From IMG/VR virus record IMGVR_UViG_2541047852_000003: a DNA stretch of 16,149 nucleotides; one strand, written 5' to 3'. Below, one piece after another: positions 247 through 16,149 of this stretch (position 1 is the first letter of the stretch; every line of letters begins with the position of its first letter). A program made the position numbers and the translations under genes. This DNA is from a virus. Its lineage: Duplodnaviria > Heunggongvirae > Uroviricota > Caudoviricetes. The notes under the pieces were generated by a model. The model made no database searches. It was not told the origin of the DNA and worked only from the letters and a program-made list of their open reading frames with translations.

Positions 247-268
247 AAAAAACCGCCATCAGGCGGCT
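247..268 (-). terminator. Intrinsic terminator-like hairpin (CCGCC-ATCA-GGCGG) followed by U-run on minus strand
   Basis: Stem 253-257/262-266 with A6 on plus strand at 247-252 (U-run on minus transcript); overlaps stop of the 55-aa ORF. Confidence 0.45.
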
Positions 269-426: not shown

Positions 427-498
427 TTATCATCTCCATAAAACAAAACCCGCCGTAGCGAGTTCAGATAAAAGAAATCCCCGCGAGTGCGAGGATTA

Positions 499-1063: not shown

Positions 1064-1632
1064 TTAACCTCCTGCGGCGGTTCCGGTAGAGGCATCCAGT
1101 ACAAGGCGTTCCCTAACCACGATAAAGTGCCGTCGCTCAACTCCACGTATTCCCCTTGTACCTGTCCTGCCATATACTCGCCGTGCTTTGAATAAATTAA
1201 AATCCAATCATCTTGAGCGGGCATTCGCTCACTACAGCTTATCCAACCATCCGGAGTTACCGGATAGTTGCCCGACAGCTCGTTCAACTTGTAAGTTTGG
1301 CTTACAGGTTCGGCTTCCAGTTCTGCAATGCGCTTCTCTGCAGCTTCCAGCTCAACGCGCAGCTTCCCTACCGTTAGCGCAATTTCCTCGTTCTCCTGGT
1401 CGCGGCGTTTGATGTATTGCTGGTTTCTTTCCCGTTCATCCAGCAGCGCCAGCACGGTTTCTGGTCCGGTCAGAAATTTGAAGGCGTTGAGCGCATCAAT
1501 ATCCACACCGTAATCCTTAAGTTCCTGTTCACTTAACAAATCATCATCAACTGGCAACATTAACAGGCGTTCCATTGCCGGAATTGCACGTTCTGCCGCC
1601 TCACGCAGTGCCTGATAGTTAATTTTGGTCAT
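1060..1632 (-). CDS. Ead/Ea22-like early protein with DUF551-like C-terminus (WMPLPEPP)
   Basis: 190-aa ORF, coiled-coil-like middle (LRVELEAAEKRIAELEAE), C-terminal PDGW...WMPLPEPP motif typical of lambdoid early-region proteins. Confidence 0.5.
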   Translation of the reverse strand: MTKINYQALREAAERAIPAMERLLMLPVDDDLLSEQELKDYGVDIDALNAFKFLTGPETVLALLDERERNQQYIKRRDQENEEIALTVGKLRVELEAAEKRIAELEAEPVSQTYKLNELSGNYPVTPDGWISCSERMPAQDDWILIYSKHGEYMAGQVQGEYVELSDGTLSWLGNALYWMPLPEPPQEVN

Positions 1633-1633
1633 A

Positions 1634-1933
1634 TCACATCCCCCTGAAGCCGTTGCATTTACGTAAAAAATCGCAGATATAGCCCTTCATTTTTTCGTGC
1701 CAATCTCGATCATTCCCATTGCACCAACCATCAGGTGGAGTCCAGTTTTCTATCAGAGCAGCCATTTTCTTTGCTTTCGCCGGAGTAGCTGTTGCGGTAT
1801 CGCAGTAATGACGAGTGTCAACCAACGTATCCATACCATCGATATCAAGTACGCAAAACCATGTGTGATTCGGCATTTCAACAGATGGTATTTGTTGCCC
1901 ACGTCGACGTTTATCAATAAGACATACAGTCAC
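1634..1933 (-). CDS. Hypothetical early protein (99 aa)
   Basis: GTG start overlapping upstream stop (GTGA) with AAGGAGG 6 nt upstream; tightly packed with neighbours. Confidence 0.4.
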   Translation of the reverse strand: MTVCLIDKRRRGQQIPSVEMPNHTWFCVLDIDGMDTLVDTRHYCDTATATPAKAKKMAALIENWTPPDGWCNGNDRDWHEKMKGYICDFLRKCNGFRGM

Positions 1934-2466
1934 TGGTTGCCTCCTTTGCGAAGCTGGGCAGCAAAGTCAACTAACCACTCAGTCATTTCAACCTTCCCTA
2001 CCAGGTCTGAACCAGGGTGCATACAGCAATCACTCTGCGCCGCTTTGAAATCCTTATACTCATATTCTTGGGCCACCAGATTTTTTGCAGCTTCTATAGC
2101 AGCATCCACCCCCTGCGCCCGCACTTCAGCCAGAAAAGCATCGGTGGCTGGGGTTTCAGTAACATCATCTTCCCATTCGCTAAACTCCTCACGACAAAAG
2201 TCATTAAATTCCTTCTCAGATTGCTTAAGTGAGGTATTTTCAGCAGCCATCTTCGCGCATTTAGCCTCAAGGTTATCAATCGTGATTCCAGCAGAACTAC
2301 ACTCCCGCAACGCCGTTTCCAGTTTTGATTCAAGTTCACCGAACTTACGGACAAGGTATTCAGCGTTTGTTTCGTTAACCTTTAAATCACTTGGGATGCA
2401 TTTACCTTTCAGAAAACCATCCATCTCAATTAGTGACATTTGTTTCATTTCTTCCCACTCCGCCAC
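1930..2466 (-). CDS. Hypothetical acidic coiled-coil early protein (Ea22-like?); alternative ATG start at 2446-2448 with GGAG upstream
   Basis: 178-aa ORF in track; internal ATG (MKQMSLIEM...) has the better SD, so the true start may be 2448. Confidence 0.45.
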   Translation of the reverse strand: MAEWEEMKQMSLIEMDGFLKGKCIPSDLKVNETNAEYLVRKFGELESKLETALRECSSAGITIDNLEAKCAKMAAENTSLKQSEKEFNDFCREEFSEWEDDVTETPATDAFLAEVRAQGVDAAIEAAKNLVAQEYEYKDFKAAQSDCCMHPGSDLVGKVEMTEWLVDFAAQLRKGGNQ

Positions 2467-2542
2467 ATCGCATTCAGATATTTGTTGTCATTAACAGAAC
2501 CGAAACTCTTTCTCTTAAGCAAGTCCTCTCATGGTAAATTCC

Positions 2543-2839
2543 TCAGTCATTACTGATAGCGCCATAGCGTGAGCGGTAATTACGCAGGCGCGGGTCGATA
2601 TATTCAGGGAAGTGGGTATATGTGGCTTTGCGGAATGGTCGGATTGATGTCTGGTAAATTCGCTCGCGTTCTTCTTTCTCTGCAAGCCATATACAGTGGC
2701 GAAATTCCTTTTCCTCTTTCGTTTCCTGCGGTAGAGACATTATTCGATCGTAGTTTTTTCTGAATTTATCCAGCACCTCCGATACGGAATTGCCGGAACA
2801 GCGGCGCGGGTCATCCGCACCATACAAAGGCGCTGGCAT
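2543..2839 (-). CDS. Hypothetical protein (98 aa)
   Basis: ORF with AAGGA upstream of ATG; no recognisable motif. Confidence 0.45.
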   Translation of the reverse strand: MPAPLYGADDPRRCSGNSVSEVLDKFRKNYDRIMSLPQETKEEKEFRHCIWLAEKEERERIYQTSIRPFRKATYTHFPEYIDPRLRNYRSRYGAISND

Positions 2840-2862
2840 AATTAAATCCTTATTTTTCTAAA

Positions 2863-3246
2863 TCAGAATGGGATGGAATCGTCGTATTCAGGATTATTTT
2901 GATGATTGCTACTTTGCTGCTGTTGGCTGTTTCCTGAAGTTGCAAATCCAATCTTTGCATTCAGTAATTCAAGAGTGATTGATTGACCATTTTGCCCCTG
3001 ATAAACATCAACCCTGATGTTTTCTCCGGTAATTTCTACAATGCCTCCTTCAACCAGAACGCTACGATAGTAATCCGCTTGCGCTCCCGGCTTGGCAAAT
3101 ACAACGGCGCTGTAGTTTGTCCATTCTTTCTTTTTTGTCTGGCGATCGTAATACTGAACGCCAGCACGGATGTTGAATCCGATATTTTCCCCGCCCTGAA
3201 ACTCTCTTGCGGGTTTGTTTAGTCTTACTGTAATCGAATGTGCCAT
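2863..3246 (-). CDS. ssb: Single-stranded DNA-binding protein (SSB)
   Basis: Start at internal ATG 3244-3246 (TAATG overlap with erf stop, AAGGGG SD); OB-fold-like N-terminus and acidic C-terminal tail ending DDSIPF, characteristic of SSB. Confidence 0.8.
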   Translation of the reverse strand: MAHSITVRLNKPAREFQGGENIGFNIRAGVQYYDRQTKKKEWTNYSAVVFAKPGAQADYYRSVLVEGGIVEITGENIRVDVYQGQNGQSITLELLNAKIGFATSGNSQQQQSSNHQNNPEYDDSIPF

Positions 3247-3851
3247 TAAGCAGTTGCCCCTTCTAATTCGTCTCGTCTGATGTTGTAAACGTCCTGCGCT
3301 TTGTGCTGCTCCGGCGTCCCTTCGAGCATCTTCCACGCTTTGGCGAACGCCTGTTTAAGCTCTTCTACGGTGTTTTTCTGCATTGCTGCGTCAGTGAATG
3401 CTTTTAGAACCTGTTCAGGTGTAAGTGATGGTTTTGATTGCTTTGCTGCTGCGTTCTGCTGATGTTTATGCTCGTCTGTATCTGCATCTTTCGCATCATC
3501 AATGCCGAACAAACCATTGAGGCAATACTTGCGTGCATAAGAGCTTGTAGCTCCCGTAACTTGTGCAGAATCCATTCCTTTCTTGCTTTCTTCCTCTCGT
3601 GCAAGAGCGGTTGCCGTATGACTGTTTTCGCCATCGGTAATAGTTGCCGTGGCTTTCACGTAATACCGATCACCAATCAACACAACTTCATCGCTGATTG
3701 ATAAAAACAGACCGTTCAGTAACGGCTTAACGCCTTCAAGAATATCTTCGCAGCTTCTGTATTTATATTTGCCGAATGAGTTGTACTGATTCTTTGGCGC
3801 GTTCAGATTCTCCTGAATAGCTGCCAGTCTTGCGTAAAATTCTTTGCTCAT
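3246..3851 (-). CDS. erf: ERF-family single-strand annealing recombinase
   Basis: 201 aa from ATG 3849-3851; N-terminus MSKEFYARLAAIQENLNAPKNQYNSFGKYKYRSCEDILEGVKPLL matches the ERF pattern; followed by SSB as in many lambdoid recombination modules. Confidence 0.65.
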   Translation of the reverse strand: MSKEFYARLAAIQENLNAPKNQYNSFGKYKYRSCEDILEGVKPLLNGLFLSISDEVVLIGDRYYVKATATITDGENSHTATALAREEESKKGMDSAQVTGATSSYARKYCLNGLFGIDDAKDADTDEHKHQQNAAAKQSKPSLTPEQVLKAFTDAAMQKNTVEELKQAFAKAWKMLEGTPEQHKAQDVYNIRRDELEGATA

Positions 3852-3952
3852 ATGATTGCTCTCAGAATGGACACGGCCCAAGGAAATAACGCTGATTTAA
3901 TACTTCGACTCGGGACAAATTAAGGCATACCCGCATTCCTTCGCGGTCACCA

Positions 3953-4111
3953 TTATGGCGATACCAGAGAGCTTTCTGCGTGTACATGCGTCTCTGTAAC
4001 TTGCTCTCCTTCACTGTGGTTGCAAGTGACATGAATATCTCCTTCGTTACCGATTAATTCTTTTATCTGACGAATGAATTCTTCGTCTGACCAGTTATCC
4101 GTAAAACTCAT
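3953..4111 (-). CDS. Small protein in kil position (52 aa), start overlapping cIII stop (ATGA)
   Basis: Positional analogy to lambda kil immediately downstream of cIII; no sequence-level recognition. Confidence 0.3.
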   Translation of the reverse strand: MSFTDNWSDEEFIRQIKELIGNEGDIHVTCNHSEGEQVTETHVHAESSLVSP

Positions 4112-4278
4112 GGACGGCCTTGTTGTTTCAAAATATCCCAAAGCTTTTCGAGCAAGCTTTTCATTCTTGGTTGTTTAAAGTCTGCTCCGGTTAAAATGTT
4201 TTTTCGTGAATGCTGTACCGATAAAATCGGGTTGAAAGGGCGAACCGATGCCGCCCCTGCAATAGCGAACTGTTGCAT
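4108..4278 (-). CDS. cIII: cIII-like protein (FtsH/HflB inhibitor)
   Basis: Start at internal ATG 4276-4278 with AAGGAG SD; MQQFAIAG N-terminus and KSLLEKLWDILKQQGRP resemble lambda CIII (MQYAIAG...ESLLERI...LIDILNQPGVP). Confidence 0.6.
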   Translation of the reverse strand: MQQFAIAGAASVRPFNPILSVQHSRKNILTGADFKQPRMKSLLEKLWDILKQQGRP

Positions 4279-4344
4279 AGGATGCTCCTTCTGTTTGATT
4301 GCATAACGAAAACGCCTCGAGTGAAGCGTTATTGGTATGCATAT

Positions 4345-4368
4345 AAAAAAGCCCTCACACTGGAGGGC
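4345..4368 (-). terminator. Intrinsic terminator (tL1-like): GCCCTC-loop-GAGGGC followed by U6 on minus transcript
   Basis: Hairpin 4351-4368 with A6 on plus strand 4345-4350; lies between the 156-aa gene and cIII. Confidence 0.55.
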
Positions 4369-4472
4369 AAAGAAGATTTCCAATAATCAGAACAAGTCGG
4401 CTCCTGTTTAGTTACGAGCGACATTGCTCCGTGTATTCACTCGTTGGAATGAATACACAGTGCTTATTCGTA

Positions 4473-4943
4473 CTAATAAAACACCCAGTTTTCTGTTTCT
4501 TGGTTGTGTCCAAAGTTATATTCAATACCTGGTGTTGATGTATCAATATTCTTCATCCCATCAACAAGAGTTGATACAACAGCCAAATCTTGTTTGATTC
4601 TCATCAAATGGTATTTCTTCCGGCGCAATAAACTTTCAATGGCAAGTTTCTTCGTCGGGAATGCAAAAGATCTTTCTGCATTTTTTGCTACTTTCTTAAT
4701 TGCATATCTATTTCTCCTTTGTTTCCATTCCTGTAACCACTGATTTGGTGCTGGTTTAAAATTAACAATCCAATGCGCAGGAACCAACCATGCATAATGC
4801 TCTGTCTGATGAAAAGCTATATATTGAAGTGCGAATATTTTGATTCCATCTTCTTCAACTGTCGCTTGGAATCTCCAGAAAACAGGCATTCCATCATGTT
4901 CAGTTTCTGATTCAGGAAAAGGTACGCTCCATGATTTTGTCAT
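4473..4943 (-). CDS. Hypothetical accessory protein (156 aa) directly downstream of N
   Basis: ORF with GAGGTG SD; occupies the ral/sieB position of lambda; no recognisable family. Confidence 0.5.
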   Translation of the reverse strand: MTKSWSVPFPESETEHDGMPVFWRFQATVEEDGIKIFALQYIAFHQTEHYAWLVPAHWIVNFKPAPNQWLQEWKQRRNRYAIKKVAKNAERSFAFPTKKLAIESLLRRKKYHLMRIKQDLAVVSTLVDGMKNIDTSTPGIEYNFGHNQETENWVFY

Positions 4944-4951
4944 ATATCACC

Positions 4952-5251
4952 TCAAATAAGTGGTTTGCTGCCTAATTTCATTTTCTGGCGACCAACACAA
5001 GTCACACCCATTTCACTGCGTGGCTTGCGGTAGTAAATACGATTCTGTTTACTCTCGACTTCATCTGCCTTCTTGCAGCGAAGGATTCCGAGTGATGCTG
5101 CTTTATCCGCTCTGACGCAACCAGAGAGCTTTAGCGCAATTTTTCGCGCCAGTCGCTGTTCTTGCATCGCCTGTTCACGTTGAGCCTGTCTGCGTGCTCT
5201 GCGGCGATTTCTGGCGTTATCGTCAGCCAGATATGTAATGACTACTGTCAT
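4952..5251 (-). CDS. N: N-like transcription antitermination protein
   Basis: Start at internal ATG 5249-5251 (GGAGG SD); arginine-rich motif DNARNRRRARRQAQREQ; C-terminus RIYYRKPRSEMGVTCVGRQKMKLGSKPLI matches lambda N C-terminus (RTWYSKPGERGITCSGRQKIKGKSIPLI). Confidence 0.8.
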   Translation of the reverse strand: MTVVITYLADDNARNRRRARRQAQREQAMQEQRLARKIALKLSGCVRADKAASLGILRCKKADEVESKQNRIYYRKPRSEMGVTCVGRQKMKLGSKPLI

Positions 5252-5563
5252 GTTGACCTCCGATGAAACAACTTTGGAATTGATAGTGATTGCAAAGTGG
5301 TTTCTGGCCCCTCGAACTGAGGGGCAGAAAGAGCATCTCGCCACCTAATAGGTCGATGCTCGGATCGAGAGATTTAATTAACCTCGGTTTTGAAGTTATG
5401 CATTCACATAAATCCTCCTACCTCTTGTGCAGCTTTCTTGAATATGGTGGCGGCTGCATAACGCCTATGGAATTGACTTTGGCGGTGACGCGCCGGGTGC
5501 TTATCTTCCGGTTGCCGTCGTGCAGCTGCACTTCACGTCACCCCAAAGCCAACTACTCTTTGG

Positions 5564-5605
5564 TTCCCGCATTTCGGCGGGACAATCCCATCAATGTTAA
5601 AGAGC
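5564..5605 (-). promoter_or_regulatory. nutL site: boxA (GCTCTTTAACA) and boxB hairpin (TCCCGC-CGAAAT-GCGGGA) on minus strand
   Basis: Reverse complement of 5595-5605 gives GCTCTTTAACA; 5564-5582 gives a boxB-like stem-loop identical in loop to the nutR copy at 6721-6740. Confidence 0.65.
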
Positions 5606-5651
5606 CTGCCAATCTGTTCCGTTTGGCTTCCAGCGTCCTGCTGATGGCTTA

Positions 5652-5730
5652 AATTTAAGATCTCTTTAATTAATGGTCAAGAGCATTTTTGAAGAAAACT
5701 TAAATTTTCTTTCGTAACTTAAGTTTGGCT
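5652..5730 (-). promoter_or_regulatory. pL promoter (-35 TTGACC at 5675-5680, -10 TAAATT at 5652-5657, minus strand) with overlapping TTAAG-type OL operator repeats
   Basis: 17-bp spacing; ATTTAAG-N4-CTTTAA-like operator overlapping -10; further TTAAG repeats at 5697-5729. Confidence 0.5.
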
Positions 5731-5743
5731 TTGATTTTTAAAG

Positions 5744-5772
5744 GAAATAAAAAAAAAGGGGCGAATGCCCCC
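5744..5772 (-). terminator. Intrinsic terminator immediately after c2 stop (GGGGC-GAAT-GCCCC followed by long U-run on minus transcript)
   Basis: Hairpin 5758-5771; A-run 5744-5757 on plus strand. Confidence 0.6.
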
Positions 5773-6423
5773 TTATGGAAGGTTTGCTAGTTTTGCATCG
5801 ACAACTACGCCGATGATTTTGCAGTTTCCGTTGATCTCGATCATCGGATATTGTGGGTTAAGTGGTTTTAGAAACTTCCTGCCTGCATCAATAACTAACT
5901 TCTTGAAAGTTGCCTCGTTTTCTCCTTCGAGCTTTGCAACTACCAGTTTCCCGTTACGCGGCTCTACTTCAGGATCGACGAGTATTATCATTCCTTCAGG
6001 GATACTGAGACCGGCCGGAGCCGTCATTGAGTCTCCCTTCACGTCCAACCAAAACGAATCTTCTGAACAGTCTACGGTTGTATCGTACCAGTTATCTATT
6101 GCACGCTTATGATATGGTTCTACAGCTTCCATCCAGCATCCTGCGCTCACCCAGCTAATCAGAGGGTATGACCCTCTTGGATCATGCCTACTGTGATAGG
6201 CAATGTTTGAAAGACTTTCCTCTCCTTTCATCAGATAGTCAGGGGAACACTTCAACGCATTAGCCAGGGCGAGAAGATTCTCTCCATTTGGCTCTGTCTC
6301 AGAGCGTTCCCACTGAGATATGGCAACATTAGACACGCCGACCATCTTTCCAAGTGCGGCCTGCCTGATCTTGAGTTCTTTTCTCCGAGCGCGAATGCGC
6401 TCTCCCATCAATTGAGTTTTCAT
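5773..6423 (-). CDS. c2: Prophage repressor, P22 c2-type (N-terminal HTH, C-terminal LexA/S24-like autocleavage domain)
   Basis: 216 aa; QAALGKMVGVSNVAISQWE HTH; C-terminal S24-like domain; near-identical to my recollection of P22 C2 (MNTQLMGERIRARRKKLKIRQAALGKMVG...). Confidence 0.85.
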   Translation of the reverse strand: MKTQLMGERIRARRKELKIRQAALGKMVGVSNVAISQWERSETEPNGENLLALANALKCSPDYLMKGEESLSNIAYHSRHDPRGSYPLISWVSAGCWMEAVEPYHKRAIDNWYDTTVDCSEDSFWLDVKGDSMTAPAGLSIPEGMIILVDPEVEPRNGKLVVAKLEGENEATFKKLVIDAGRKFLKPLNPQYPMIEINGNCKIIGVVVDAKLANLP

Positions 6424-6503
6424 AGTTAAGACATCTTAAATAAACTTGACTTAAGATTCCTTTAGTGGATAATTTAAGTGTTCTTTAATTTCGGAGCGAG
6501 TCT
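6424..6503. promoter_or_regulatory. OR region: three TTAAG-N4-CTT(T)AA operator-like imperfect palindromes (6426-6439, 6451-6465, 6473-6488), pR (-35 TTGACT 6446-6451, -10 GATAAT 6468-6473), divergent pRM presumed
   Basis: Operators and promoter hexamers read directly; arrangement matches P22/lambda-type OR. Confidence 0.65.
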
Positions 6504-6689
6504 ATGTACAAGAAAGATGTTATCGACCACTTCGGAACCCAGCGTGCTGTAGCTAAAGCGTTAGGCATTAGCGACGCAGCAGTCTCTCAGTGGAAGGAAG
6601 TCATCCCAGAGAAAGACGCCTATCGACTGGAAGTCGTTACAGCTGGCGCCCTGATGTATCAAGAAAGCGCTTACCGCAAAGCGGCATAA
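6504..6689 (+). CDS. cro: Cro repressor, P22-type
   Basis: 61 aa, HTH QRAVAKALGISDAAVSQW; GGAG SD; first gene of pR operon divergent from c2. Confidence 0.8.
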   Translation: MYKKDVIDHFGTQRAVAKALGISDAAVSQWKEVIPEKDAYRLEVVTAGALMYQESAYRKAA

Positions 6690-6695
6690 GCAAAT

Positions 6696-6740
6696 TGCTC
6701 TTTAACAGTCATGGTCCTCATTCCCGCCGAAATGCGGGAA
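6696..6740 (+). promoter_or_regulatory. nutR site: boxA (TGCTCTTTAACA 6696-6707) and boxB hairpin (TTCCCGC-CGAAAT-GCGGGAA 6721-6740)
   Basis: Read directly; same boxB as nutL; followed by hairpin GCGCAT-AAGTTG-ATGCGC at 6747-6764 (possible tR1-region structure). Confidence 0.65.
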
Positions 6741-6782
6741 TACAACGCGCATAAGTTGATGCGCATAACTTCTTATTTGTTA

Positions 6783-6820
6783 AGGAAATACTTACATATG
6801 GTTCGTGCAAACAAACGCAA
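6783..6820 (-). promoter_or_regulatory. pRE (cII-activated promoter) with TTGC-N6-TTGC CII-binding repeats (minus strand, 6807-6820)
   Basis: Reverse complement of 6807-6820 is TTGCGTTTGTTTGC; flanking sequence CATATGTAAGTATTTCC matches the lambda pRE region as I recall it. Confidence 0.6.
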
Positions 6821-7091
6821 CGAGGCTCTAAGAATCGAGAGTGCGTTGCTTAACAAAATCGCAATGCTTGGAACTGAGAAGACAGCGGAAGCTGTGGGCG
6901 TTGATAAGTCGCAGATCAGCAGGTGGAAGAGGGACTGGATTCCAAAGTTCTCAATGCTGCTTGCTGTTCTTGAATGGGGTGTTGTCGACGACGACATGGC
7001 TCGATTGGCACGACAAGTTGCTTCGATTCTCACCAATAAAAAACGCCCGGCGGCAACCGAGCGTTCTGATCAAATACAAATGGAATTTTAA
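6798..7091 (+). CDS. cII: Transcriptional activator CII (lambda-type)
   Basis: 97 aa starting MVRANKRNEALRIESALLNKIAMLGTEKTAEAVGVDKSQISRWKRDW..., essentially lambda CII; true ATG at 6798, not the upstream in-frame ATG of the track ORF. Confidence 0.9.
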   Translation: MVRANKRNEALRIESALLNKIAMLGTEKTAEAVGVDKSQISRWKRDWIPKFSMLLAVLEWGVVDDDMARLARQVASILTNKKRPAATERSDQIQMEF

Positions 7092-7102
7092 CAACATCCA
7101 AC
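7038..7102 (-). ncRNA. oop: OOP-like antisense RNA to cII 3' end (terminator 7038-7063; putative pO -10 TATAAT at 7109-7114)
   Basis: Minus-strand hairpin CGCUCGG-UUGCCG-CCGGGCG plus U6, same as lambda oop terminator; a perfect TATAAT on minus strand upstream; -35 is weak (TGGATT). Confidence 0.4.
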
Positions 7103-7113
7103 GAGGTAATTAT

Positions 7114-7386
7114 ATGCGAAACAAAGGCTTTAATCCACCTGATACACACAAAGAAGCTAAGCGTTTGCGCTTCCTTCGTTCCATTGATGAAAGAACTCAA
7201 ATCTCTTTTGTGAAAGTTGCCAGAACTGAGCTTCTGAAGGCTGAGGCGAGGGCGTTGCTCCCGTCTCTACCAAAAGAGGAGGGATATACGTTCATTCCAA
7301 ACGCATTTCTGGAAAAGCTTCTCAAAGAAGACATATCCGTAAGTCAGTTTAACGATGTTCTTAAGGTCTTTCGTCAAGGCAGGTAG
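7114..7386 (+). CDS. Hypothetical protein (90 aa) between cII and the replication initiator
   Basis: ATG 7114 with ACGAGGT SD; basic, helical-looking; no recognisable family. The track ORF extends upstream into cII and is rejected. Confidence 0.5.
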   Translation: MRNKGFNPPDTHKEAKRLRFLRSIDERTQISFVKVARTELLKAEARALLPSLPKEEGYTFIPNAFLEKLLKEDISVSQFNDVLKVFRQGR

Positions 7387-7388
7387 TT

Positions 7389-8336
7389 ATGAGCAATACA
7401 GCAAAAATCTACGATTTCAGCGCCGCACACGAGCGCAGGAGCAACAGGATGGAGAACCAGAAAACTGGTTACATTCCGTTGTACCGGAGCATTCTGAAAC
7501 AGTCATGGGCGAAAGATGTTTATCTTCGCACCCTGTGGGAAAACCTTCTCCTGAATGCCGCCAGAAAGCCATACAAAGCGAATTTCAAAGGTCATGAATG
7601 GCATCTGCAACCCGGTCAACTGGTTGTGACAGCAGCTGATTTAGGTCTTCAGTTATGCGACAGACATGGCAAGCCAGCAAGCCGTGATCAGGTTGAGCGG
7701 ATGCTTCAGGTTTTTGTGAAAGAGGGGATGATCTCCATTGATGGAGAGAAGCAAAAAGGCCGTGTGATAACCATCACAAATTACCATGAATATGCTCAAA
7801 AAATGGACAATTTACCCGCACATGAAGCCGCACAAACAACCGCACATGATGCCGCACATGATGAAGCCAGCAATAGCGCGGCTTTCAGCGTACATGCCGC
7901 ACATGAAAGCGCACATGAAGCCGCACAAACAACCGCACATCATGAACAAGAAGGTATTAACAAGAATATAAATAATACCCCCCTACCCCCCAATGGGGGA
8001 GGCGATGGGCAGGTTAAACCTGAACGTCGCAAGGCAGAACGAATCGACTACGAATCCTTCCTGAACGCCTACAACACCGAAGTCGGTGACAGACTGCCAC
8101 ACGCTGTTGCGGTCAACGAGAAACGAAAACGCCGCCTGAAGAAAATCATCCCGCAACTGAAAACGCCAAACGTGGACGGTTTCAGAGCGTATGTCAGGGC
8201 GTTTGTGCATCAGGCCAAGCCGTTTTACTTCGGAGACAACGACACGGGCTGGACGGCTGATTTTGATTACCTGCTGAGAGAAGACTCGTTAACGGGAGTT
8301 CGGGAAGGGAAGTTTGCAGACAGGGGGATTGCATGA
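7389..8336 (+). CDS. Replication initiator, lambda O / P22 gp18-like, with internal origin
   Basis: 315 aa; N-terminus [10 protein letters not shown] resembles lambda O (MTNTAKILNF); iterons and AT-rich tract lie inside the gene; followed by helicase gene with ATGA overlap. Confidence 0.7.
7815..7979. repeat. Origin of replication: about six direct iterons of the form CCGCACATGA(A/T)G plus two CCGCACAAACAACCG copies, followed by a 30-bp AT-rich tract (7950-7979)
   Basis: Repeats read directly at 7817-7945; AT-rich AAGGTATTAACAAGAATATAAATAATA follows; classic lambdoid ori architecture within the initiator gene. Confidence 0.7.
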
Positions 8337-9709
8337 GACAGGATATCGAAGCGAGCGTTATCGGTGGCCTGCTGATTGGTGGATTAACTCCAACCGCCAG
8401 TGACGTTCTTGCAACGCTGGAGCCGGAAGCGTTTTCAATTCCGCTCTACCGGAAAGCCTTCGAGGTTATCCGGAAGCAGGCGAGAAACAGAAACCTAATC
8501 GACGCGCTGATGGTTGCCGAGGCGTGCGGAGAGGAGCATTTCACGTCAATCCTGATGACCAGCAAAAACTGCCCGAGCGCCGCAAACCTGAAGGGATATG
8601 CCGGAATGGTCGCGGATAACTATCACCGCCGTCTGGTGCTGGAAATCATGGATGAAATGCGTGAACCAATCCAAAGCGGAACCATCGACGCATCGAGTCA
8701 GGCGATGGATGAACTTGTAAAACGTCTCTCAGCCATCAGAAAGCCCCGTGACGAGGTTAAACCTGTACGGTTAGGGGAAATCATCACCGACTACACTGAC
8801 ACGCTTGACAGGCGTCTGAGGAACGGAGAAGAGTCCGATACCCTGAAGACCGGAATCGAAGAACTTGATGCCATCACCGGAGGGATGAACGCGGAAGACC
8901 TGGTGATAATCGCTGCTCGTCCTGGTATGGGGAAAACCGAACTGGCGCTGAAGATTGCCGAAGGCGTTGCAAGCCGCGTTATTCCTGGTTCTGACGTCCG
9001 GCGCGGGGTATTGATTTTCTCAATGGAAATGAGCGCATTGCAGATTGCAGAGCGAAGCATTGCCAACGCCGGGAGGATGTCGGTTAGCGTACTGCGAAAT
9101 CCTGCATCGATGGATGACGAGGGCTGGGCACGTGTTGCTAACGGCATGAGTCAGCTTGCAGATTTGGATGTATGGGTAGTCGATGCCTCGCGATTATCGG
9201 TCGAAGAAATACGCTCAATCGCAGAACGGCACAAACAGGAAAATCCAAACCTCTCACTCATCATGGCGGATTATCTTGGCCTGATTGAGAAGCCGAAAGC
9301 AGACCGCAACGACCTCGCAATTGCTCACATCTCCGGAAGCCTGAAGGCGATGGCGAAAGACCTGAAAACACCGGTTATTTCCCTGAGTCAGCTTTCACGC
9401 GATGTTGAGAAGCGACCAAACAAACGCCCGACAAACGCAGATTTGCGTGATTCAGGAAGCATTGAACAGGACGCAGACTCAATCATCATGCTCTATCGGG
9501 AAGCGGTATATGACGAGAACAGTAGCGCCGCGCCATTTGCTGAAATCATCGTGACGAAAAACCGTTTTGGCTCACTTGGTACGGTTTACCAGCGGTTCTG
9601 CAACGGACACTTTGTTGCATGTGACCAGGATGAAGCCAGACAGATTTGCACAGCATCAAATGCACCTGCTGCGCGTGGCAGACGATATGCACAAGGGGCT
9701 GACGTATGA
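8333..9709 (+). CDS. Replicative DNA helicase, DnaB family (P22 gp12-like)
   Basis: 458 aa; Walker [16 protein letters not shown], Walker B-like [21 protein letters not shown] arginine-finger region. Confidence 0.85.
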
Positions 9710-9789
9710 CCATCTACATCACTGAGCTTGTAACAGGCCTGCTGGTAATCGCAGGCCTTTTTATTTGGGGGAGGGTAAATCGTGGTTGA
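9706..9789 (+). CDS. Possible 27-aa hydrophobic peptide ([27 protein letters not shown])
   Basis: ATG overlaps helicase stop (ATGA); single hydrophobic helix; too short to call firmly. Confidence 0.2.
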
Positions 9790-9988
9790 GTTGATTTTTT
9801 CTGCATTGAGGATTCTCGGTGCTATGTGGATGGTGGCGACGTTCATTGTGGTTGCCAGCAGTTTTGTCCGGTTGGTAGGCGAAGGTAAAGACCTGGTTGG
9901 TGTGCTTTTCGGTAGCATTTTTCTGTGGGTGATTATCGGTGTTATGCCTGTTGTCGTAGCAAAAGTGGCGTGGCGTTTTGTGAGTTAA
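9782..9988 (+). CDS. Small membrane protein (68 aa, two predicted TM helices)
   Basis: GTG start preceded by GGGGAGGG SD; strongly hydrophobic sequence. Confidence 0.45.
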   Translation: MVELIFSALRILGAMWMVATFIVVASSFVRLVGEGKDLVGVLFGSIFLWVIIGVMPVVVAKVAWRFVS

Positions 9989-10000
9989 TCGGAGGTTAAT

Positions 10001-10183
10001 GTGAGCAAGTGCCAAAAGTGCAATAACACAGGAATGTGTGATAGCGGAGGTTCTACTCCTTGGGGAGAGCCGATTTTTATTGAATGTGACTGCCTTATGA
10101 AAGATGACGAAAGCAGATGCCAGTTTGAAGAGAGTTGGTTACGACGTGGGGGGCGAATCTTCAGACCTTATCCGTTACCCTGA
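10001..10183 (+). CDS. Cysteine-rich small protein (CxxC...CxC, zinc-ribbon-like); probably 5' part of a frameshifted gene
   Basis: GTG start with GGAGG SD; MSKCQKCNNTGMCDSGG...ECDC motif; frame changes at the G6 tract 10148-10153. Confidence 0.4.
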   Translation: MSKCQKCNNTGMCDSGGSTPWGEPIFIECDCLMKDDESRCQFEESWLRRGGRIFRPYPLP

Positions 10184-10418
10184 AAATCACCATGAAATTG
10201 GCAGTGGTGATATTGGTGGTCAATACGTGATGGACGATGTTCAAGGCCACTGGCAAACGTGGCAGGCATCGAGAGCAGCTATTGAAATTGAGCTGCAAAA
10301 GCCAAAGAAAGGCCCACTTCCCGGTGATTATCACATTGGCTATGACTCAGGTGCAGAATCGCAATACGAAAGCGATGTAGAGGCTATCCGCGCCGCTGGA
10401 ATCAAAGTGAAGGAGTGA
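10104..10418 (+). CDS. Hypothetical protein; probably 3' part of the same gene as 10001-10183 (frames meet at G6 tract)
   Basis: Overlaps previous ORF by 80 nt in another frame; no convincing independent start before internal ATG 10230. Confidence 0.3.
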   Translation: MTKADASLKRVGYDVGGESSDLIRYPENHHEIGSGDIGGQYVMDDVQGHWQTWQASRAAIEIELQKPKKGPLPGDYHIGYDSGAESQYESDVEAIRAAGIKVKE

Positions 10419-10606
10419 GCATGAGTCGACGAAGTAGCTTTTTGGGGTTTGTAATATTCCTGTCCTGCACTGGTTACATCGTAATCTGGTCAATTTCGAA
10501 CATTGACCGTGGCGGGAAATATCTCATTGTAATGTTCTTTCCTTTGTTTCTTGGGTGGTACGCCGCAAGGTTGCTGGAAGAATGGGGTTACAGGCATAAA
10601 AAATAA
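10415..10606 (+). CDS. Small membrane protein (63 aa)
   Basis: ATG overlaps upstream stop (ATGA); two hydrophobic segments; ends 7 bp before IS629. Confidence 0.45.
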   Translation: MSMSRRSSFLGFVIFLSCTGYIVIWSISNIDRGGKYLIVMFFPLFLGWYAARLLEEWGYRHKK

Positions 10607-10667
10607 AGGAGTATGAACCGCCCCGGGAATCCTGGAGACTAAACTCCCTGAGAAAGAGGTAAACAGG

Positions 10668-10994
10668 ATGACTAAAAATACTCGTTTTTCCCCCGAAGTC
10701 CGTCAGAGGGCGATTCGTATGGTTCTGGAAAGTCAGGGCGAATATGACTCACAGTGGGCGGCAATTTGTTCCATTGCCCCAAAGATTGGCTGTACACCGG
10801 AGACTCTGCGTGTCTGGGTACGCCAGCATGAGCGGGATACCGGAGGCGGTGATGGCGGGCTCACCACCGCTGAACGTCAGCGTCTGAAAGAGCTGGAACG
10901 TGAAAATCGTGAACTGCGCCGCAGTAACGATATCCTTCGCCAGGCTTCCGCTTATTTTGCGAAGGCGGAGTTCGACCGCCTCTGGAAAAAATGA
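10668..10994 (+). CDS. IS629 transposase OrfA (HTH/leucine-zipper part)
   Basis: 108 aa [21 protein letters not shown]...; A6 run at 10986-10991 is the likely -1 slippery site for OrfAB fusion. Confidence 0.85.
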
Positions 10995-11881
10995 TGCCAC
11001 TGCTGGATAAGCTGCGTGAGCAGTACGGGGTCGGACCGCTATGCAGCGAACTGCATATTGCCCCGTCAACGTATTACCACTGTCAGCAACAGCGACATCA
11101 TCCGGATAAACGCAGTGCCCGTGCGCAGCGCGATGACTGGCTGAAGAAAGAGATACAGCGCGTATACGATGAAAATCACAAGGTATACGGTGTGCGTAAA
11201 GTCTGGCGTCAGTTGTTACGGGAAGGTATCAGAGTGGCCAGATGCACTGTGGCACGTCTCATGGCGGTTATGGGACTTGCCGGTGTTCTCCGTGGTAAAA
11301 AGGTCCGTACGACCATCAGCCGGAAAGCCGTTGTCGCAGGCGACCGCGTAAACCGTCAGTTCGTGGCAGAACGTCCTGACCAGTTGTGGGTGGCTGATTC
11401 TACTTACGTCAGCACATGGCAGGGGGTCGTCTATGTGGCGTTCATCATTGATGTGTTTGCCGGATACATCGTGGGGTGGCGGGTCTCATCGTCTATGGAA
11501 ACGACATTTGTGCTGGATGCTCTGGAGCAGGCGTTATGGGCCCGTCGACCGTCCGGCACAGTCCATCACAGTGATAAAGGTTCTCAGTATGTATCGCTGG
11601 CCTACACACAGCGGCTTAAGGAAGCCGGATTACTGGCATCAACAGGAAGTACAGGCGACTCGTATGACAACGCGATGGCGGAGAGCATCAATGGCCTTTA
11701 CAAAGCGGAGGTAATACACCGTAAGAGCTGGAAAAACCGTGCAGAAGTGGAACTGGCCACACTCACGTGGGTGGACTGGTATAACAATCGACGATTGCTG
11801 GAAAGGCTGGGCCATACTCCTCCGGCAGAAGCAGAAAAAGCTTATTATGCTTCCATCGGAAACGATGATCTGGCAGCCTGA
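10991..11881 (+). CDS. IS629 transposase OrfB (DDE catalytic domain)
   Basis: 296 aa with rve-type DDE region (WVADSTYV...HHSDKGSQY...[15 protein letters not shown]). Confidence 0.85.
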
Positions 11882-12050
11882 GTTCACAGATAAAACACTC
11901 TCCAGGAAACCCGGGGCGGTTCAGACCTGCACTCTTCCTTTGCCCTGCTACCGATAGCATCCTTTAACGACTGCGGCATCCTTACCAAAATCTTACTTAT
12001 TTCTTTCTCCATGTTACCCTCCACGCAAACAACTCTTTTCGAATACAAAA

Positions 12051-12104
12051 GATAGCAAAGTGAGTATATCTAGTCAAAATTTTTTTGCATACACTTTGCT
12101 ATCA
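12051..12104. promoter_or_regulatory. 12-bp inverted repeat GATAGCAAAGTG / CACTTTGCTATC flanking a 30-bp AT-rich spacer upstream of the RHH gene; candidate operator/promoter
   Basis: Arms at 12051-12062 and 12093-12104 are exact reverse complements; spacer holds TATATC and TTGCAT hexamers. Confidence 0.4.
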
Positions 12105-12126
12105 AATTGAATACCAAAGGTGTTAT

Positions 12127-12375
12127 ATGGCAAAGGGTGTGTCAATTTCTCCAACTACGGTAAGAATCCCTGAATCTTTACGCGAGGCTCTTGCTGTCAG
12201 AGCATCAAAAAATGGTCGCTCTGTTAACTCCGAGATCGTCATGATTTTGCAAGCCGCGATTGATGAAGATAGGTCGCCAAAGTCAGTTGAGTCATTTGCT
12301 CAGCAAGAAGCTGATAAATTCAAAGAGGCGCTACTTGAGACGCTAAAGACCATGTATGCTAAGGATGAAAAATAA
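12127..12375 (+). CDS. Arc/MetJ-type ribbon-helix-helix DNA-binding protein
   Basis: 82 aa from ATG 12127 (AAGGTG SD); RIPESLREALAVRASKNGRSVNSEIVMILQAAI matches the Arc-family RHH pattern. Confidence 0.6.
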   Translation: MAKGVSISPTTVRIPESLREALAVRASKNGRSVNSEIVMILQAAIDEDRSPKSVESFAQQEADKFKEALLETLKTMYAKDEK

Positions 12376-12911
12376 TGCTGCACACAATTCATTTCTTATG
12401 CCCTGTTAACACTGCCACTGTTGGGCAACTTCAGAACCACTGTCTCACCGCATTATCTCAAGGCGCAACTGAATTAAATATCCATATATCAAGTCAGGGA
12501 GGGGAAACTGCTGCTGGCTTTACTGCGTATAACTTTCTTAAGTCACTCCCTGTTACCGTTAGAACTCACAACATAAGCAATGTTGAATCCATAGCTAATA
12601 TCGTTTTCCTGGCTGGCTCAGAACGTTTCGCAAACCCATTATCAAGATTCCTGTTACATCCTCTATTATGGTGCTTTGCCTCCCCAGCCGCCGACCATGC
12701 CAGATTGAGAGAGTACGGGAAATGCCTCGATAACGATCTTGATCGCTTCGTTGAGACGTTCAATATCGACATCGGAACCCATATTAGGTGGGCATCCCTG
12801 ATAGCAGACTCGACCATTTTGGATGCTAACAAGGCTCTTGAGCATGGCATAATTAATTCCATAAAAACTGCAAGGCTGGCATCCAATCAGGCAAACTGGT
12901 GGGTTGTTTGA
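12375..12911 (+). CDS. Minimal ClpP-fold (S14-like) serine peptidase
   Basis: 178 aa; by-eye alignment to E. coli ClpP core: NIHISSQGGETAAGF vs YLYINSPGGVITAGM; Ser in ESIANIVFLAG aligns with catalytic Ser of GQAASMGAFLLTAG; His in RFLLHPL aligns with RVMIHQPL; start overlaps RHH stop (TAATG). Confidence 0.6.
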   Translation: MLHTIHFLCPVNTATVGQLQNHCLTALSQGATELNIHISSQGGETAAGFTAYNFLKSLPVTVRTHNISNVESIANIVFLAGSERFANPLSRFLLHPLLWCFASPAADHARLREYGKCLDNDLDRFVETFNIDIGTHIRWASLIADSTILDANKALEHGIINSIKTARLASNQANWWVV

Positions 12912-12936
12912 TGGGTAAATCATGATTACTCCTTAT

Positions 12937-12961
12937 AAAAAACCCACCTGACGGTGGGTTT
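12937..12961. terminator. Bidirectional intrinsic terminator between convergent operons (CCCACC-TGAC-GGTGGG with A6 upstream and T-rich downstream)
   Basis: Hairpin 12943-12958; U6 on minus transcript, UUU on plus transcript. Confidence 0.55.
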
Positions 12962-13409
12962 AGTCAAACATAGTGTTTCTAAAGTCTCTCGCATACCCTG
13001 CTAACACTCTCATTCTATTATGATTGTTAGCAGACATGTGAGCTACAGGATGAAAAAGAGCAATCAATGAATACCTGTTCTCATCAAAAAGATTTTGTGC
13101 ATAAACGAGAGCGGTATTGGATGTTTTATGCCACTGCAACTTTTGCGGTGTGCTGATATCTGTGCCATTTTTTATTGGCTCAAATTTATTTTCACCAATT
13201 GCTAAATGAAGGTGCATAAGGCCTGCATCTTCAATATCAGGAGGTCGATGATAAGAGGTGTCTCTGCCAAAATAGCTGGGCAACGTTCCCGTAGACTTGT
13301 AGATGATAAAATCATCTACAAGTGTTTGTTTTAAATCAGGAAACTCAACAAAAACCGGGGAGAAAAAATAGTCAAAACTATCCTGATTATATTCCACGGT
13401 TACTTGCAT
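12960..13409 (-). CDS. Putative YafO-like toxin (ribosome-dependent mRNA interferase family), tentative
   Basis: 149 aa; motifs FIIYKSTGTLPSYFGRDTSY, MHLHL, TALVYAQNLFDE, LIALFHP recalled as YafO-family features; assignment from memory only. Confidence 0.4.
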   Translation of the reverse strand: MQVTVEYNQDSFDYFFSPVFVEFPDLKQTLVDDFIIYKSTGTLPSYFGRDTSYHRPPDIEDAGLMHLHLAIGENKFEPIKNGTDISTPQKLQWHKTSNTALVYAQNLFDENRYSLIALFHPVAHMSANNHNRMRVLAGYARDFRNTMFD

Positions 13410-13417: not shown

Positions 13418-13984
13418 TCAGTGGAAGTTACCAGAGTGAAACACACGAGTCCCGTGCTCAGCAAGCGCACGCAAACCAGCCATATCTACGGAACTATCAA
13501 AAACAACCGGAACACATGAGCGTTGTTTAATAAGACTATTCAGGTTGGTTACGGCAGATCTGGCATCAGCAACAACGATATAGATATCTCTTGCGATCTC
13601 TTTAAAATCAGCAGAAGCTTCTTTGAATACCGATTTCATTGCCCCTTCAAGTCCTCTCAATTGATGCTCTATCAATCGAGACTTTTCTGGTTCAATGATA
13701 GACAACACATTGTCTACATTCTCATCGGTAGCGTTTGCAAGAACACGATAAGCGTATTTCAGCATTCGAGACAATTCTTTAATCGAAGACACCGCCTCAT
13801 GAAGCTCATCATTAGCCCGTTCACTGCTGAATGAGGATTGATGGTAAGCGTGCTGAACGTTATCAGTAACAACCACCTCACAACTGAACGCAGAAGCTTG
13901 CTGTAATAGCAAACCTATTGCGACTCCAGCTTTGGCAGCGTTCAAGCTAAACATTTCATCAATCCCATTAGTCTCATTGCTCAT
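13418..13984 (-). CDS. Hypothetical protein (188 aa) upstream of and co-transcribed with the YafO-like gene; possible atypical antitoxin/partner
   Basis: Start at ATG 13982-13984 with AAGGAGG SD (internal to the track ORF); stop 8 nt before the downstream start; no recognisable domain. Confidence 0.5.
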   Translation of the reverse strand: MSNETNGIDEMFSLNAAKAGVAIGLLLQQASAFSCEVVVTDNVQHAYHQSSFSSERANDELHEAVSSIKELSRMLKYAYRVLANATDENVDNVLSIIEPEKSRLIEHQLRGLEGAMKSVFKEASADFKEIARDIYIVVADARSAVTNLNSLIKQRSCVPVVFDSSVDMAGLRALAEHGTRVFHSGNFH

Positions 13985-14159
13985 ACAAACCTCCTTCTTA
14001 TCGGAGATTATCAATAGCTATGCATCCATTGAATACACGCTATGCGCAATAAGTTTACGTCACGTGATATCATTATGCAACCACCGTTCTATCACCGACT
14101 AACTTTACTCCCACTCCTATACATCATCTGGTATCCTGCGCAAAACTAAGGAGGTTGGT

Positions 14160-14510
14160 GTGAATGCTCAGTCTGTCATCATGGTTTTCCTTGGGCTGAT
14201 TGTCGCAAAACTATATCCAGACTGGTGGAAAGGGGCATTAGCTACTGTCGCCATCTATTTGCTTTTATCCATCGTTAAGCGATCACTCGCTGAGACCGTA
14301 AATCAAGCAAAACGTTTCTCATTTAAGAGTTTAATAAACTATGTTACTGGGCTTATTTTTTGCCTTTCAATTCTGATCGCTTCGGCTTTTTTGCCCGTAT
14401 CAATAGCTAATTTTTTTGGCGCACCATATGAGGTAGGTTATCTATTCTCTGTTTCCTGTCTTGCCATTGCTCTTCTTTACCTGTGGACGAGATCAAAGAA
14501 TAAAAATTAG
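14160..14510 (+). CDS. Integral membrane protein (116 aa, 3-4 predicted TM helices)
   Basis: GTG start 5 nt after AAGGAGG; hydrophobic segments VIMVFLGLIVAKL, ATVAIYLLLSIV, GLIFCLSILIASAFLPV, YLFSVSCLAIALLYLW. Confidence 0.5.
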   Translation: MNAQSVIMVFLGLIVAKLYPDWWKGALATVAIYLLLSIVKRSLAETVNQAKRFSFKSLINYVTGLIFCLSILIASAFLPVSIANFFGAPYEVGYLFSVSCLAIALLYLWTRSKNKN

Positions 14511-14527: not shown

Positions 14528-15990
14528 TTATTGAGCTTCTTTTTGTGATGCCTGTGCGACTCTGGTGAGCGATTGTGTGACCGTACTGATCGCTCTGTCA
14601 TATGCTGTGCTACCTTTTGGCGTATTTGCCAGACGTAACAAGGCATTTCGTATAACAGGGCTTTCGTATGCCTTCGCAGCTCCTCCTACGACACCAGCAG
14701 CAGGAACAACAAACGCAGCCGTTTTTAGCATCCCCGCTAATACTGCTGCGTTTATGATGCCACCACCAACTAACAATCCATAAAGCTGCTGACCATTTAA
14801 GTTTTGAACGTTCGCTTTTGCCGCGTGTCTTGTATCGTTGAGGTATTTAATAACGCCGTCCAGTTCCTTTCCATGTACGCCTTTAAAGAAAGTTGCTGAT
14901 TGCTTCCTGTTCCGGTGTAACGCATTAATAAACTTTTCAACACTAATATTTCCAGACGGATCAGTCGCCTTATCTACAGCATTCTGAACTATGGCTGCTC
15001 GTGCGTTTTGCCTACCATTGTCATCCAGAAGCCTGTAAAGCTGAGAACGTTCTGATGGGTTTTGGCTAAAAACGAGTTTTGTTACATCCTCAGGTGTAGC
15101 CTTGCCGCTGGCTATTGCCTTTTGAACGCGCGTTCTTCCCATCATGTCATTGAATCTAGCCCATGAGCGATCAACCCTAGACATATTGGCAGCTTCTTCT
15201 GAGCCTAGTTTTTGGGATACTGCTTTTTTCATATCCGCTGTATATGCCTTGTAGACAATATCGCTGGCTTTCTGGAGCGTGTCTTTATCAACAGTCTCGT
15301 TTGAATTCATGAACCGCTTTCGAAGGTCAGTTCTGTTTTCTCTCGCCAGACGCAGGTCATTGGGTCCGCTGGTGATATCGTCTTTAAATTGCTGCAAGAC
15401 TTTTACCGCGGCTCTATCCTGAGATTTGCCCGGGCGGCTTAACACGGCAATCTGATTGTCGATAGCTTTTACCGTGTTTGAGAGATCGACAGGGGTATCC
15501 CCCATAGCGTCAATTATGCGGTTATATCGCTTTCCTGCTGCCTCAATGAATTTTTGTTGCCCTTTAGTCGCAGATTCATAAAGCTGTTTATCAGAAATGC
15601 CACCCAGACCATCGCTAAATGTTCTGACTAAATTTTCTCGTGCTTGTTGTTGATTCAGCCGATTCTTACCGGTTCCAAAAAAAGGAACTCTTTCGCCTAA
15701 TGTCTGAGCCTGACTCTGCATAAAGGTTTTATCTTTCAGCGTGTCACTGGTCATTAACGGCAGGTTTCTTTCCGACGCAAAATCGACAGCAGCCTTTGCT
15801 TCCGGTGACATCTCACCGCGAACAGCCCTGGAAACCGCACTAACTGTATTTTCCAGCCCCTTGCCAACACCACCAATGCCAGCAGAAATTACCGTTTGTG
15901 CAGGATCAATATCTTCTCCGCCAGCAAGGCTGGTGCCACCCTGTAGTGCTAAATCTGTAGCAGCTGATTTCCCTATGGCACCAAGCACCG
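14528..15990 (-). pseudogene. 5'-truncated gene remnant (at least 486 codons) interrupted by IS629; helical protein with C-terminal Gly/Ala-rich hydrophobic segment
   Basis: Reading frame stays open from 15988 through the IS629 terminal repeat to a stop at 16046-16048; no credible start or SD at the junction. Confidence 0.5.
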
Positions 15991-16149
15991 TGAACCGCCC
16001 CGGGTTTCCTGGAGAGTGTTTTATCTGTGAACTCAGGCTGCCAGATCATCGTTTCCGATGGAAGCATAATAAGCTTTTTCTGCTTCTGCCGGAGGAGTAT
16101 GGCCCAGCCTTTCCAGCAATCGTCGATTGTTATACCAGTCCACCCACGT
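15991..16149 (-). mobile_element. Second IS629 copy, inverted, partial (continues beyond window)
   Basis: 15991-16149 is the exact reverse complement of 11765-11923 of the first copy (right IR and orfB 3' end). Confidence 0.85.
16033..16149 (-). CDS. IS629 OrfB C-terminal fragment (partial at window edge)
   Basis: Reverse complement encodes ...[38 protein letters not shown] with stop at 16033-16035. Confidence 0.8.
   Translation of the reverse strand, partial: TWVDWYNNRRLLERLGHTPPAEAEKAYYASIGNDDLAA

Follow-up and report, generated by a model that had tools for sequence, protein, structure and literature searches.

Does a gene for a small repressor that runs directly into a gene for a protease form a dedicated switch, in which the protease acts on the repressor, or do the two functions only share a transcript? 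The question is raised by positions 12,051 to 12,911 of the viral record IMGVR_UViG_2541047852_000003 (Caudoviricetes), a stretch of 16,149 nucleotides (nt) that was analyzed at its full length and is referred to here as the window. In this interval, a gene for an 82-amino-acid (aa) ribbon-helix-helix (RHH) protein is followed by a gene for a 178-aa ClpP-like serine peptidase, and an earlier note on this DNA had likened the pair to a switch made of a repressor and its cognate protease, or to a protease-based toxin or abortive-infection effector, in a system that it did not recognize as described.

The reading that we favor, with moderate confidence, is that the first gene encodes the known Mnt repressor of a P22-like prophage and that the second is carried by a separate passenger cassette that places a short ClpP on the mnt transcript, so that the pair would not represent a new switch. 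The proposal of a cognate module did not hold, since the peptidase is found without the RHH protein and mnt is found without the peptidase. Nor is the system wholly undescribed: the RHH protein reads as a P22-type Mnt in a classical secondary immunity (immI) region, and the peptidase family has a solved and assayed member, ClpP1 of Pseudomonas plecoglossicida (PpClpP1). The immI part is therefore already known, and the phage-borne short ClpP is the new part.

The repressor and the short ClpP

The two genes under discussion are as follows.

12127..12375, plus strand: mnt, the RHH gene; 82 aa from its ATG, with an N-terminal RHH part and a C-terminal helical part
12375..12911, plus strand: short clpP-like gene; 178 aa, ClpP fold, with a Ser72-His95 dyad

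The stop codon of mnt and the ATG of the clpP-like gene overlap by 1 base (TAA/ATG, giving TAATG), and the coordinates thus confirm the coupling described in the earlier note. Reading of the sequence also placed an AAGGA ribosome-binding site for the clpP-like gene at 12360-12364, within the final mnt codons. Analysis of the open reading frames (ORFs) revealed no in-frame start for the clpP-like gene upstream of 12375; therefore, the short N terminus of the 178-aa protein is genuine.

The assignment of the 82-aa protein to the Arc-type RHH proteins was borne out by a match to Pfam Arc (E value, 9.5e-11). Its best solved relative is P22 Mnt (1mnt; E value, 2.3e-6; residues 12-73 aligned), to which it is 36% identical over 74 residues, in an alignment that extends through residue 79 and into the C-terminal helical tetramerization part. 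Orthologues in Pectobacterium and Providencia matched Pfam Repressor_Mnt (PF11423), a model that the window protein itself did not match at an E value of ≤1; its RefSeq name is "Arc family DNA-binding protein." These comparisons identify the 82-aa protein as the Mnt maintenance repressor of a P22-type immI region.

P22 lysogens produce Mnt from its own promoter, and the repressor binds the divergent arc/mnt control region and keeps the arc-ant (antirepressor) operon off. The locus resembles P22 immI in its slot between gene 16 and the tailspike gene, in the divergent orientation of mnt and arc-ant, in the presence of both Mnt domains, and in having repeats in the spacer; unlike P22 immI, it has an extra gene downstream of mnt, and in the window arc is cut and ant is gone. 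The immI cluster was named the "ant moron" by Villafane et al. in 2008, and its APEC O1 version was drawn with six genes (PMC2629481; PMC8022706).

The 178-aa protein scored 44.4 bits against Pfam CLP_protease (PF00574; cutoff, 20.2 bits; E value, 2.2e-11). Against the NCBIfam ClpP equivalogs (TIGR00493 and PRK models), it scored 19 to 40 bits, below the cutoffs of 228 to 361, and because these cutoffs are not reached, its RefSeq name, "ATP-dependent Clp protease proteolytic subunit," overstates what is known of it. The closest solved structure was that of the 183-aa PpClpP1 (9UXT; E value, 1.6e-35), with runners-up at ~1e-7, and the two proteins are 40% identical over their full length. A single-chain AlphaFold2 model, with a predicted local distance difference test (pLDDT) score of 90.7, was compared with known structures by the use of Foldseek; it matched 9uxt_A with a template modeling (TM) score of 0.91 and a root mean square deviation of 1.9 Å, versus TM scores of 0.72 to 0.79 for canonical ClpPs. 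Both the Pfam match and the model agree with the previous description of a minimal ClpP-fold serine peptidase.

Residues were mapped in an alignment of 25 family members with Escherichia coli ClpP. Ser72 and His95, already suspected to be the preserved catalytic Ser and His, were invariant (25/25) and aligned with Ser97 and His122 of E. coli ClpP. The Asp that had been suggested near the motif ADSTILD did not survive this alignment: the column of ClpP Asp171 is occupied by Ser146 in the window protein and by S, A, T, or G across the family, and the neighboring Asp145 is present in only 2 of the 25 members. The axial loops are absent, because Met1 aligns with residue 24 of mature ClpP. Furthermore, the ClpX/ClpA docking pocket is polar at six of its eight positions (Y60N, Y62H, F82S, I90H, L114N, and L189K).

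On this evidence, from sequence and model, we identify the 178-aa protein as a PpClpP1-type short ClpP subunit and a new phage-borne member of a recently described family. It shares with PpClpP1 a length of ~180 aa, the missing N-terminal axial region, the combination of Ser and His with a nonacidic third residue, and a conserved Trp close to the C terminus. The two differ in that the third residue is Pro in PpClpP1 and Ser146 in the window protein and in that the window gene is prophage borne and cotranslated with mnt, whereas the Pseudomonas relatives that were retrieved are stand-alone chromosomal genes. Canonical E. coli ClpP (family S14) resembles the window protein in its fold, in the oxyanion/GG motif region, and in having the catalytic Ser and His; however, the identity is ~23 to 25%, and the window protein has no counterpart of mature residues 1 to 23, no catalytic Asp, and no hydrophobic pocket for docking of the ClpX/ClpA IGF loops.

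The family is large and barely studied. An exhaustive search returned 524 clusters at an E value of ≤1e-10, mostly of 180 to 200 aa and aligned from about residue 3, and only one member has been characterized. In the alignment, a conserved N-W-W-V motif (residues 173-178 of the window protein) closes the enterobacterial and Chromobacterium sequences and is absent from canonical ClpP; this end was modeled as a terminal β-strand, and PpClpP1 retains one Trp there.

PpClpP1 was reported in 2026 as the first characterized member of the family, in a paper that does not mention phages (PMC12900304). It forms a homotetradecamer with a pore of 42.7 Å, its peptidase activity is ~13-fold below that of its canonical paralogue, its Ser and His are essential and its third residue is dispensable, and it does not bind ClpX (PMC12900304). 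Together with canonical ClpP, it forms a heterotetradecamer that is more active and that works with ClpX through the canonical ring (PMC12900304).

The idea of a weak paralogue that gains function in a mixed tetradecamer is shared with the two-ring ClpP1/ClpP2 systems of Mycobacterium, Listeria, and Pseudomonas aeruginosa, and Listeria ClpP1/2 was among the top structural matches outside the family (TM score, 0.79 by Foldseek). Those paralogues differ from the window protein in being chromosomal and in keeping their N-terminal loops. To our knowledge, no phage-borne partner subunit for a ClpP ring has been described.

Linkage and control of the two genes

Comparison of the window with its relatives delimits a third feature, which spans the junction of the two genes.

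12354..12940, plus strand: mobile cassette of ~590 bp, with both ends read by eye; it begins ~7 codons before the end of mnt, takes in the ribosome-binding site and the clpP-like gene, and closes with a 30-nt tail

In strain 19SZHZ803Rt, arc and the downstream yafO-like and 188-aa genes are the same and mnt is 97% identical, but the clpP-like gene is absent: mnt passes straight into a hairpin shared with the window, and the difference between the two loci is the ~590-bp cassette. In GN05476, an identical ClpP-like protein is encoded behind a different, P22-type Mnt, and Arc and the downstream genes are also different. Mnt proteins ending in KDEK, KDDK, or KDNK were found solely where a clpP-like gene follows. 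P22-like prophages of two other genera show the order mnt-clpP-like as well: in Pectobacterium, the identity is 80% and the genes overlap by 1 nt, and in Providencia, the identity is 66% and a gap of 30 nt separates the genes. The maps of both also have mnt divergent from arc-ant, in the interval from gene 16 to the tailspike gene. Naturally isogenic pairs that differ in the cassette exist, and two phages that carry it, E212 and phiv205-1, are cultivable.

At five or more other prophage positions, as well as in bacterial chromosomes, the peptidase gene was found without any RHH gene. Relatives that are equally close are solo genes in prophages, on the strand opposite to that of their neighbors. 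In Serratia (72% identity), Klebsiella, and E. coli, such a copy lies between the lysis genes and the terminase gene; in Proteus, it lies beside the N gene; in Chromobacterium, it lies between the lysis and tail-fiber genes; and another is carried by a decayed E. coli prophage. Temperate phages of the Enterobacterales have thus repeatedly acquired a short ClpP, in slots typical of accessory genes that are expressed in the lysogen, and in extraintestinal pathogenic E. coli of the S88 and APEC O1 type, it is tied to the Mnt transcript.

More distant relatives, at 40 to 47% identity, are stand-alone chromosomal genes with conserved housekeeping neighbors in ~50 Massilia species, and those in Pseudomonas are likewise stand-alone chromosomal genes, with no RHH gene nearby. 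The conserved synteny in Massilia suggests that the short ClpP family has a vertically inherited cellular function.

Neighboring genes in these high-GC genomes were called with a GC3 filter, and their sequences were inspected directly. In Massilia and related Oxalobacteraceae, a gene that reads by eye as hydroxyisourate hydrolase-like lies upstream, and genes for a CNNM/CorC-like membrane protein and pilB/pilC lie downstream. The downstream gene of 420 to 430 aa was at first suspected to encode ClpX, a candidate that was dropped when the gene was read by eye as encoding the CNNM/CorC-type membrane protein. A tblastn search with Mnt against 100 loci gave matches in E. coli P22-like loci only; because RHH proteins are too divergent for tblastn, their presence was judged from the Pfam tables of called genes.

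The repressor and the peptidase are not an obligate module; their linkage is facultative. Peptidase genes occur alone, as does one mnt between unchanged flanking genes, and this makes a dedicated repressor-protease switch unlikely.

The sites that may control the pair lie in the spacer upstream of mnt and in the interval downstream of the clpP-like gene.

12013..12126, no strand assigned: divergent arc/mnt control region, a 114-bp spacer
12077-12072 (-35) and 12054-12049 (-10), minus strand: leftward promoter-like site, from a promoter match; the -10 is overlapped by the left repeat arm
12097-12105, plus strand: putative rightward extended -10-like sequence, TGcTATCAA, read by eye; overlapped by the right repeat arm
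12943..12958, no strand assigned: hairpin CCCACC-TGAC-GGTGGG, read by eye, between the convergent clpP-like and yafO-like genes and conserved in 19SZHZ803Rt

The perfect 12-bp inverted repeat that had been reported upstream of the RHH gene is present, with the arms GATAGCAAAGTG at 12051-12062 and CACTTTGCTATC at 12092-12103 and 29 nt between them; by our own estimate, ~4e-4 such repeat pairs would be expected by chance in a 114-bp spacer. The arms are candidate operator sites, with either Mnt or Arc as a plausible user. In phage phiv205-1 and strain 19SZHZ803Rt, the right arm is conserved at 11 of 12 positions. The C/A polymorphism responsible, at 12099, reduces the 12-bp repeat to 11/12 and yet creates a perfect local palindrome, TTTGATATCAAA; either geometry, the long-range repeat or the local palindrome, could be that of the real operator.

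The arc-mnt spacer of GN05476 (3197-3286 of its locus) contains the palindromes ATAGGTCCACCGTGGACCTAT and ATAGTAGAGTGCTTCTATCAT, beside a near-P22 Mnt; these are recognizable as the P22 Omnt and Oarc operators. The spacer repeats therefore change with the type of repressor. The two 12-bp arms of the window, which are 41 bp apart from center to center, differ from the compact palindromes of P22.

The hairpin at 12943-12958 has A6 at one end and T3 at the opposite end, a pattern that suggests strong termination on the minus strand and weaker termination on the plus strand. A consensus terminator scan called nothing, this hairpin included.

Possible roles of the short ClpP

If the P22 scheme applies, Mnt in the lysogen would bind the arc/mnt control region, and arc-ant would stay off. 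The short ClpP would be translated from the mnt transcript by means of the ribosome-binding site within the 3' end of mnt. Because the cassette brings no promoter and its reading frame opens on the mnt stop codon, the short ClpP should be made whenever Mnt is made, that is, continuously in lysogens. By analogy with PpClpP1, it would assemble into seven-membered rings and tetradecamers around a wide, open pore, would be weakly active as a peptidase, and would not itself bind unfoldases. It may also stack on a ring of host ClpP, as the PpClpP1 results suggest, to give a hybrid protease with altered activity.

In the reading that we favor, the short ClpP probably modifies host Clp proteolysis in the lysogen. 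It can be envisioned that the prophage or the host would benefit from remodeled Clp-dependent turnover or from the degradation of unfolded proteins of incoming phages. A bolder version, which we put forward tentatively, is that the phage subunit, coexpressed with Mnt, stacks on the host ring to form a hybrid that is open on one side and that reprograms degradation in the lysogen. If this version is true, the hybrid might, for example, destroy proteins of superinfecting phages or tune host stress or virulence regulators, and the short ClpP would give the virus a means to modify a compartmental protease of its host.

Several points weigh against the reading of a known Mnt with a passenger cassette and against the role just outlined. 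Expression, oligomeric state, activity, and interaction with E. coli ClpP would all be transferred from a homologue of 40% identity. A literature search that covered prophage-borne ClpP, the protein accessions, the term "ant moron," and phiv205-1/E212 found no phenotype for the gene and no paper that mentions it in a phage. In the promoter scan, the plus-strand mnt promoter was not a strong consensus match. Finally, the recurrence of the mnt-clpP-like order in Escherichia, Pectobacterium, and Providencia makes some functional link to immI possible.

Of the other explanations, we consider it possible, although unlikely, that the short ClpP is a superinfection-exclusion or abortive-infection effector, either as an open-pore lysogen protease that degrades incoming-phage proteins when these are unfolded or ejected, or as a protein that becomes toxic on infection. 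Its position is suggestive: the gene lies in the variable region between gene 16 and the tailspike gene, which holds sieA in P22, and other copies lie between lysis genes and terminase or beside the N gene. Such prophage slots are sites of accessory genes expressed in the lysogen, such as bor of lambda, and in another remnant of an E. coli prophage, an iss gene adjoins a lysis gene. The solo copies are on the strand opposite to the flanking phage operons, and a YafO-family toxin gene is among the neighbors in the window. However, neither protein matched a PADLOC defense model: in PADLOC-DB v2, the peptidase matched zero families, and Mnt gave only a chance-level match to BrxA (E value, 0.026). 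In addition, the vertically conserved chromosomal orthologues of Massilia, with their housekeeping neighbors, point to a general role in proteostasis.

It is doubtful that the short ClpP is a decoy, that is, a dominant-negative subunit that coassembles with host ClpP, lowers ClpXP/ClpAP activity, and so stabilizes particular substrates in the lysogen. The polar residues at six of the eight positions of the docking pocket, the absent axial loops, and the failure of PpClpP1 to bind ClpX would all suit such a role, but the sole hybrid that has been studied is more active and still works with ClpX via its canonical ring.

Still more improbable, in our judgment, is the dedicated switch, in which the ClpP-like protease would specifically cleave its RHH partner, or Arc or Ant, and flip the immI circuit as ImmA cleaves ImmR. 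The clpP-like gene does lie inside an immunity circuit, the TAATG junction couples its translation to that of mnt, and the gene order recurs in P22-like prophages of three genera. Nevertheless, the clpP-like gene stands alone in many prophage slots and chromosomes, the same arc and a 97%-identical mnt do without it in 19SZHZ803Rt, and in GN05476 the Mnt and Arc proteins that accompany the identical protease are quite different. ClpP-fold chambers are, moreover, processive and nonspecific rather than site-specific proteases. The likeness to ImmR/ImmA and CapH/CapP is that of a small DNA-binding repressor beside a protease gene on a mobile element; in those systems, the metallopeptidases cleave their partners and always travel with them, whereas the pairing studied here is facultative and involves a chamber-forming serine peptidase.

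That the gene encodes a displaced or decaying prohead (head maturation) protease is very improbable and was rejected on the basis of a subcutoff score and a position outside the head module: despite subthreshold PHROGs and NCBIfam matches to ClpP-related head maturation proteases and a GenBank annotation as such in phage phiv205-1, the protein scored 49.3 bits against a cutoff of 120 for NF045542 (ClpP-related phage head maturation protease), no close relative that was examined maps between the portal and capsid genes, that interval in S88 consists of one unannotated 297-aa gene with no annotated protease, P22-type heads mature without proteolysis, and the Ser and His are conserved in an ORF that is intact across genera. 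The earlier note had likewise set the protein apart from the prohead proteases. The names "ATP-dependent Clp protease proteolytic subunit" and "head maturation protease," both in current use as annotations, are thereby corrected, and the passenger short ClpP behind a known Mnt remains the reading that we prefer.

The prophage locus and its rearrangement

The remaining features of the window are listed below.

1-10614: prophage early region
10615..11923, plus strand: IS629-like insertion sequence (IS) of the IS3 family, 1309 bp, with ORFs of 108 aa and 296 aa; named "IS3 family transposase" in relatives (RefSeq)
11924..12012, minus strand: arc', cut by IS629 after codon 30 of 50, with loss of the second helix, from the intact and interrupted translations
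14528-15988: gene-16-type ejection gene, truncated; the intact gene encodes 670 aa in S88
15991..16149, minus strand: inverted partial IS629 copy, from a blastn search of the IS against the window; truncates the ejection gene

E. coli S88 and APEC O1 are among the genomes with uninterrupted, 100%-identical copies of the locus, in a P22-like prophage adjoining tRNA-Arg. The intact order, present in ~94 of 5426 complete genomes, runs on the left from int through an acyltransferase gene, the tailspike gene, ant, and a small ORF to arc; the divergent mnt and clpP-like genes follow, and on the right are the yafO-like gene, a 188-aa ORF, a 109-aa ORF, the gene-16-type ejection gene, and the head genes. 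In the window, inverted IS629 copies flank a 4.07-kb piece of this prophage, from arc' to gene 16', and the left copy joins it to the early region at 1-10614. Among the complete E. coli genomes of the collection, none is colinear with the window as a whole; a comparable IS-flanked remnant, in which all late genes are gone, is present in strain AH20K059.

The IS629 copies are secondary insertions into prophage genes. Because they cut the prophage genes arc and gene 16, what had been described as IS-bounded cargo is a piece of the prophage into which the IS arrived later; the description of the pair as IS629 bounded stands literally (10615-11923 and 15991-16149), and its description as cargo does not. 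Likewise, the statement that the pair has no portal, scaffold, or capsid neighbors is true of the rearranged window but not of the intact copies, where the pair belongs to a P22-like prophage and is separated from the gene-16-type ejection gene by 1.6 kb and from the capsid gene by ~9 kb.

Downstream of the pair, a YafO-family toxin gene occupies 12960-13409 on the minus strand (Pfam E value, 3.4e-22). The gene 8 nt upstream of it, at 13418-14014 on the same strand, encodes a protein of 188 to 198 aa that belongs to phrog_8416 and is not a YafN-type antitoxin; together, the yafO-like and phrog_8416 genes may constitute an atypical toxin-antitoxin or defense pair. Between this operon and the ejection gene, a plus-strand gene at 14160-14510 encodes a predicted membrane protein of 109 to 116 aa with no family match. 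The same variable region holds other small accessory genes besides sieA in P22, and in GN05476 it also contains genes for a LexA-family repressor and extra antirepressor-like proteins.

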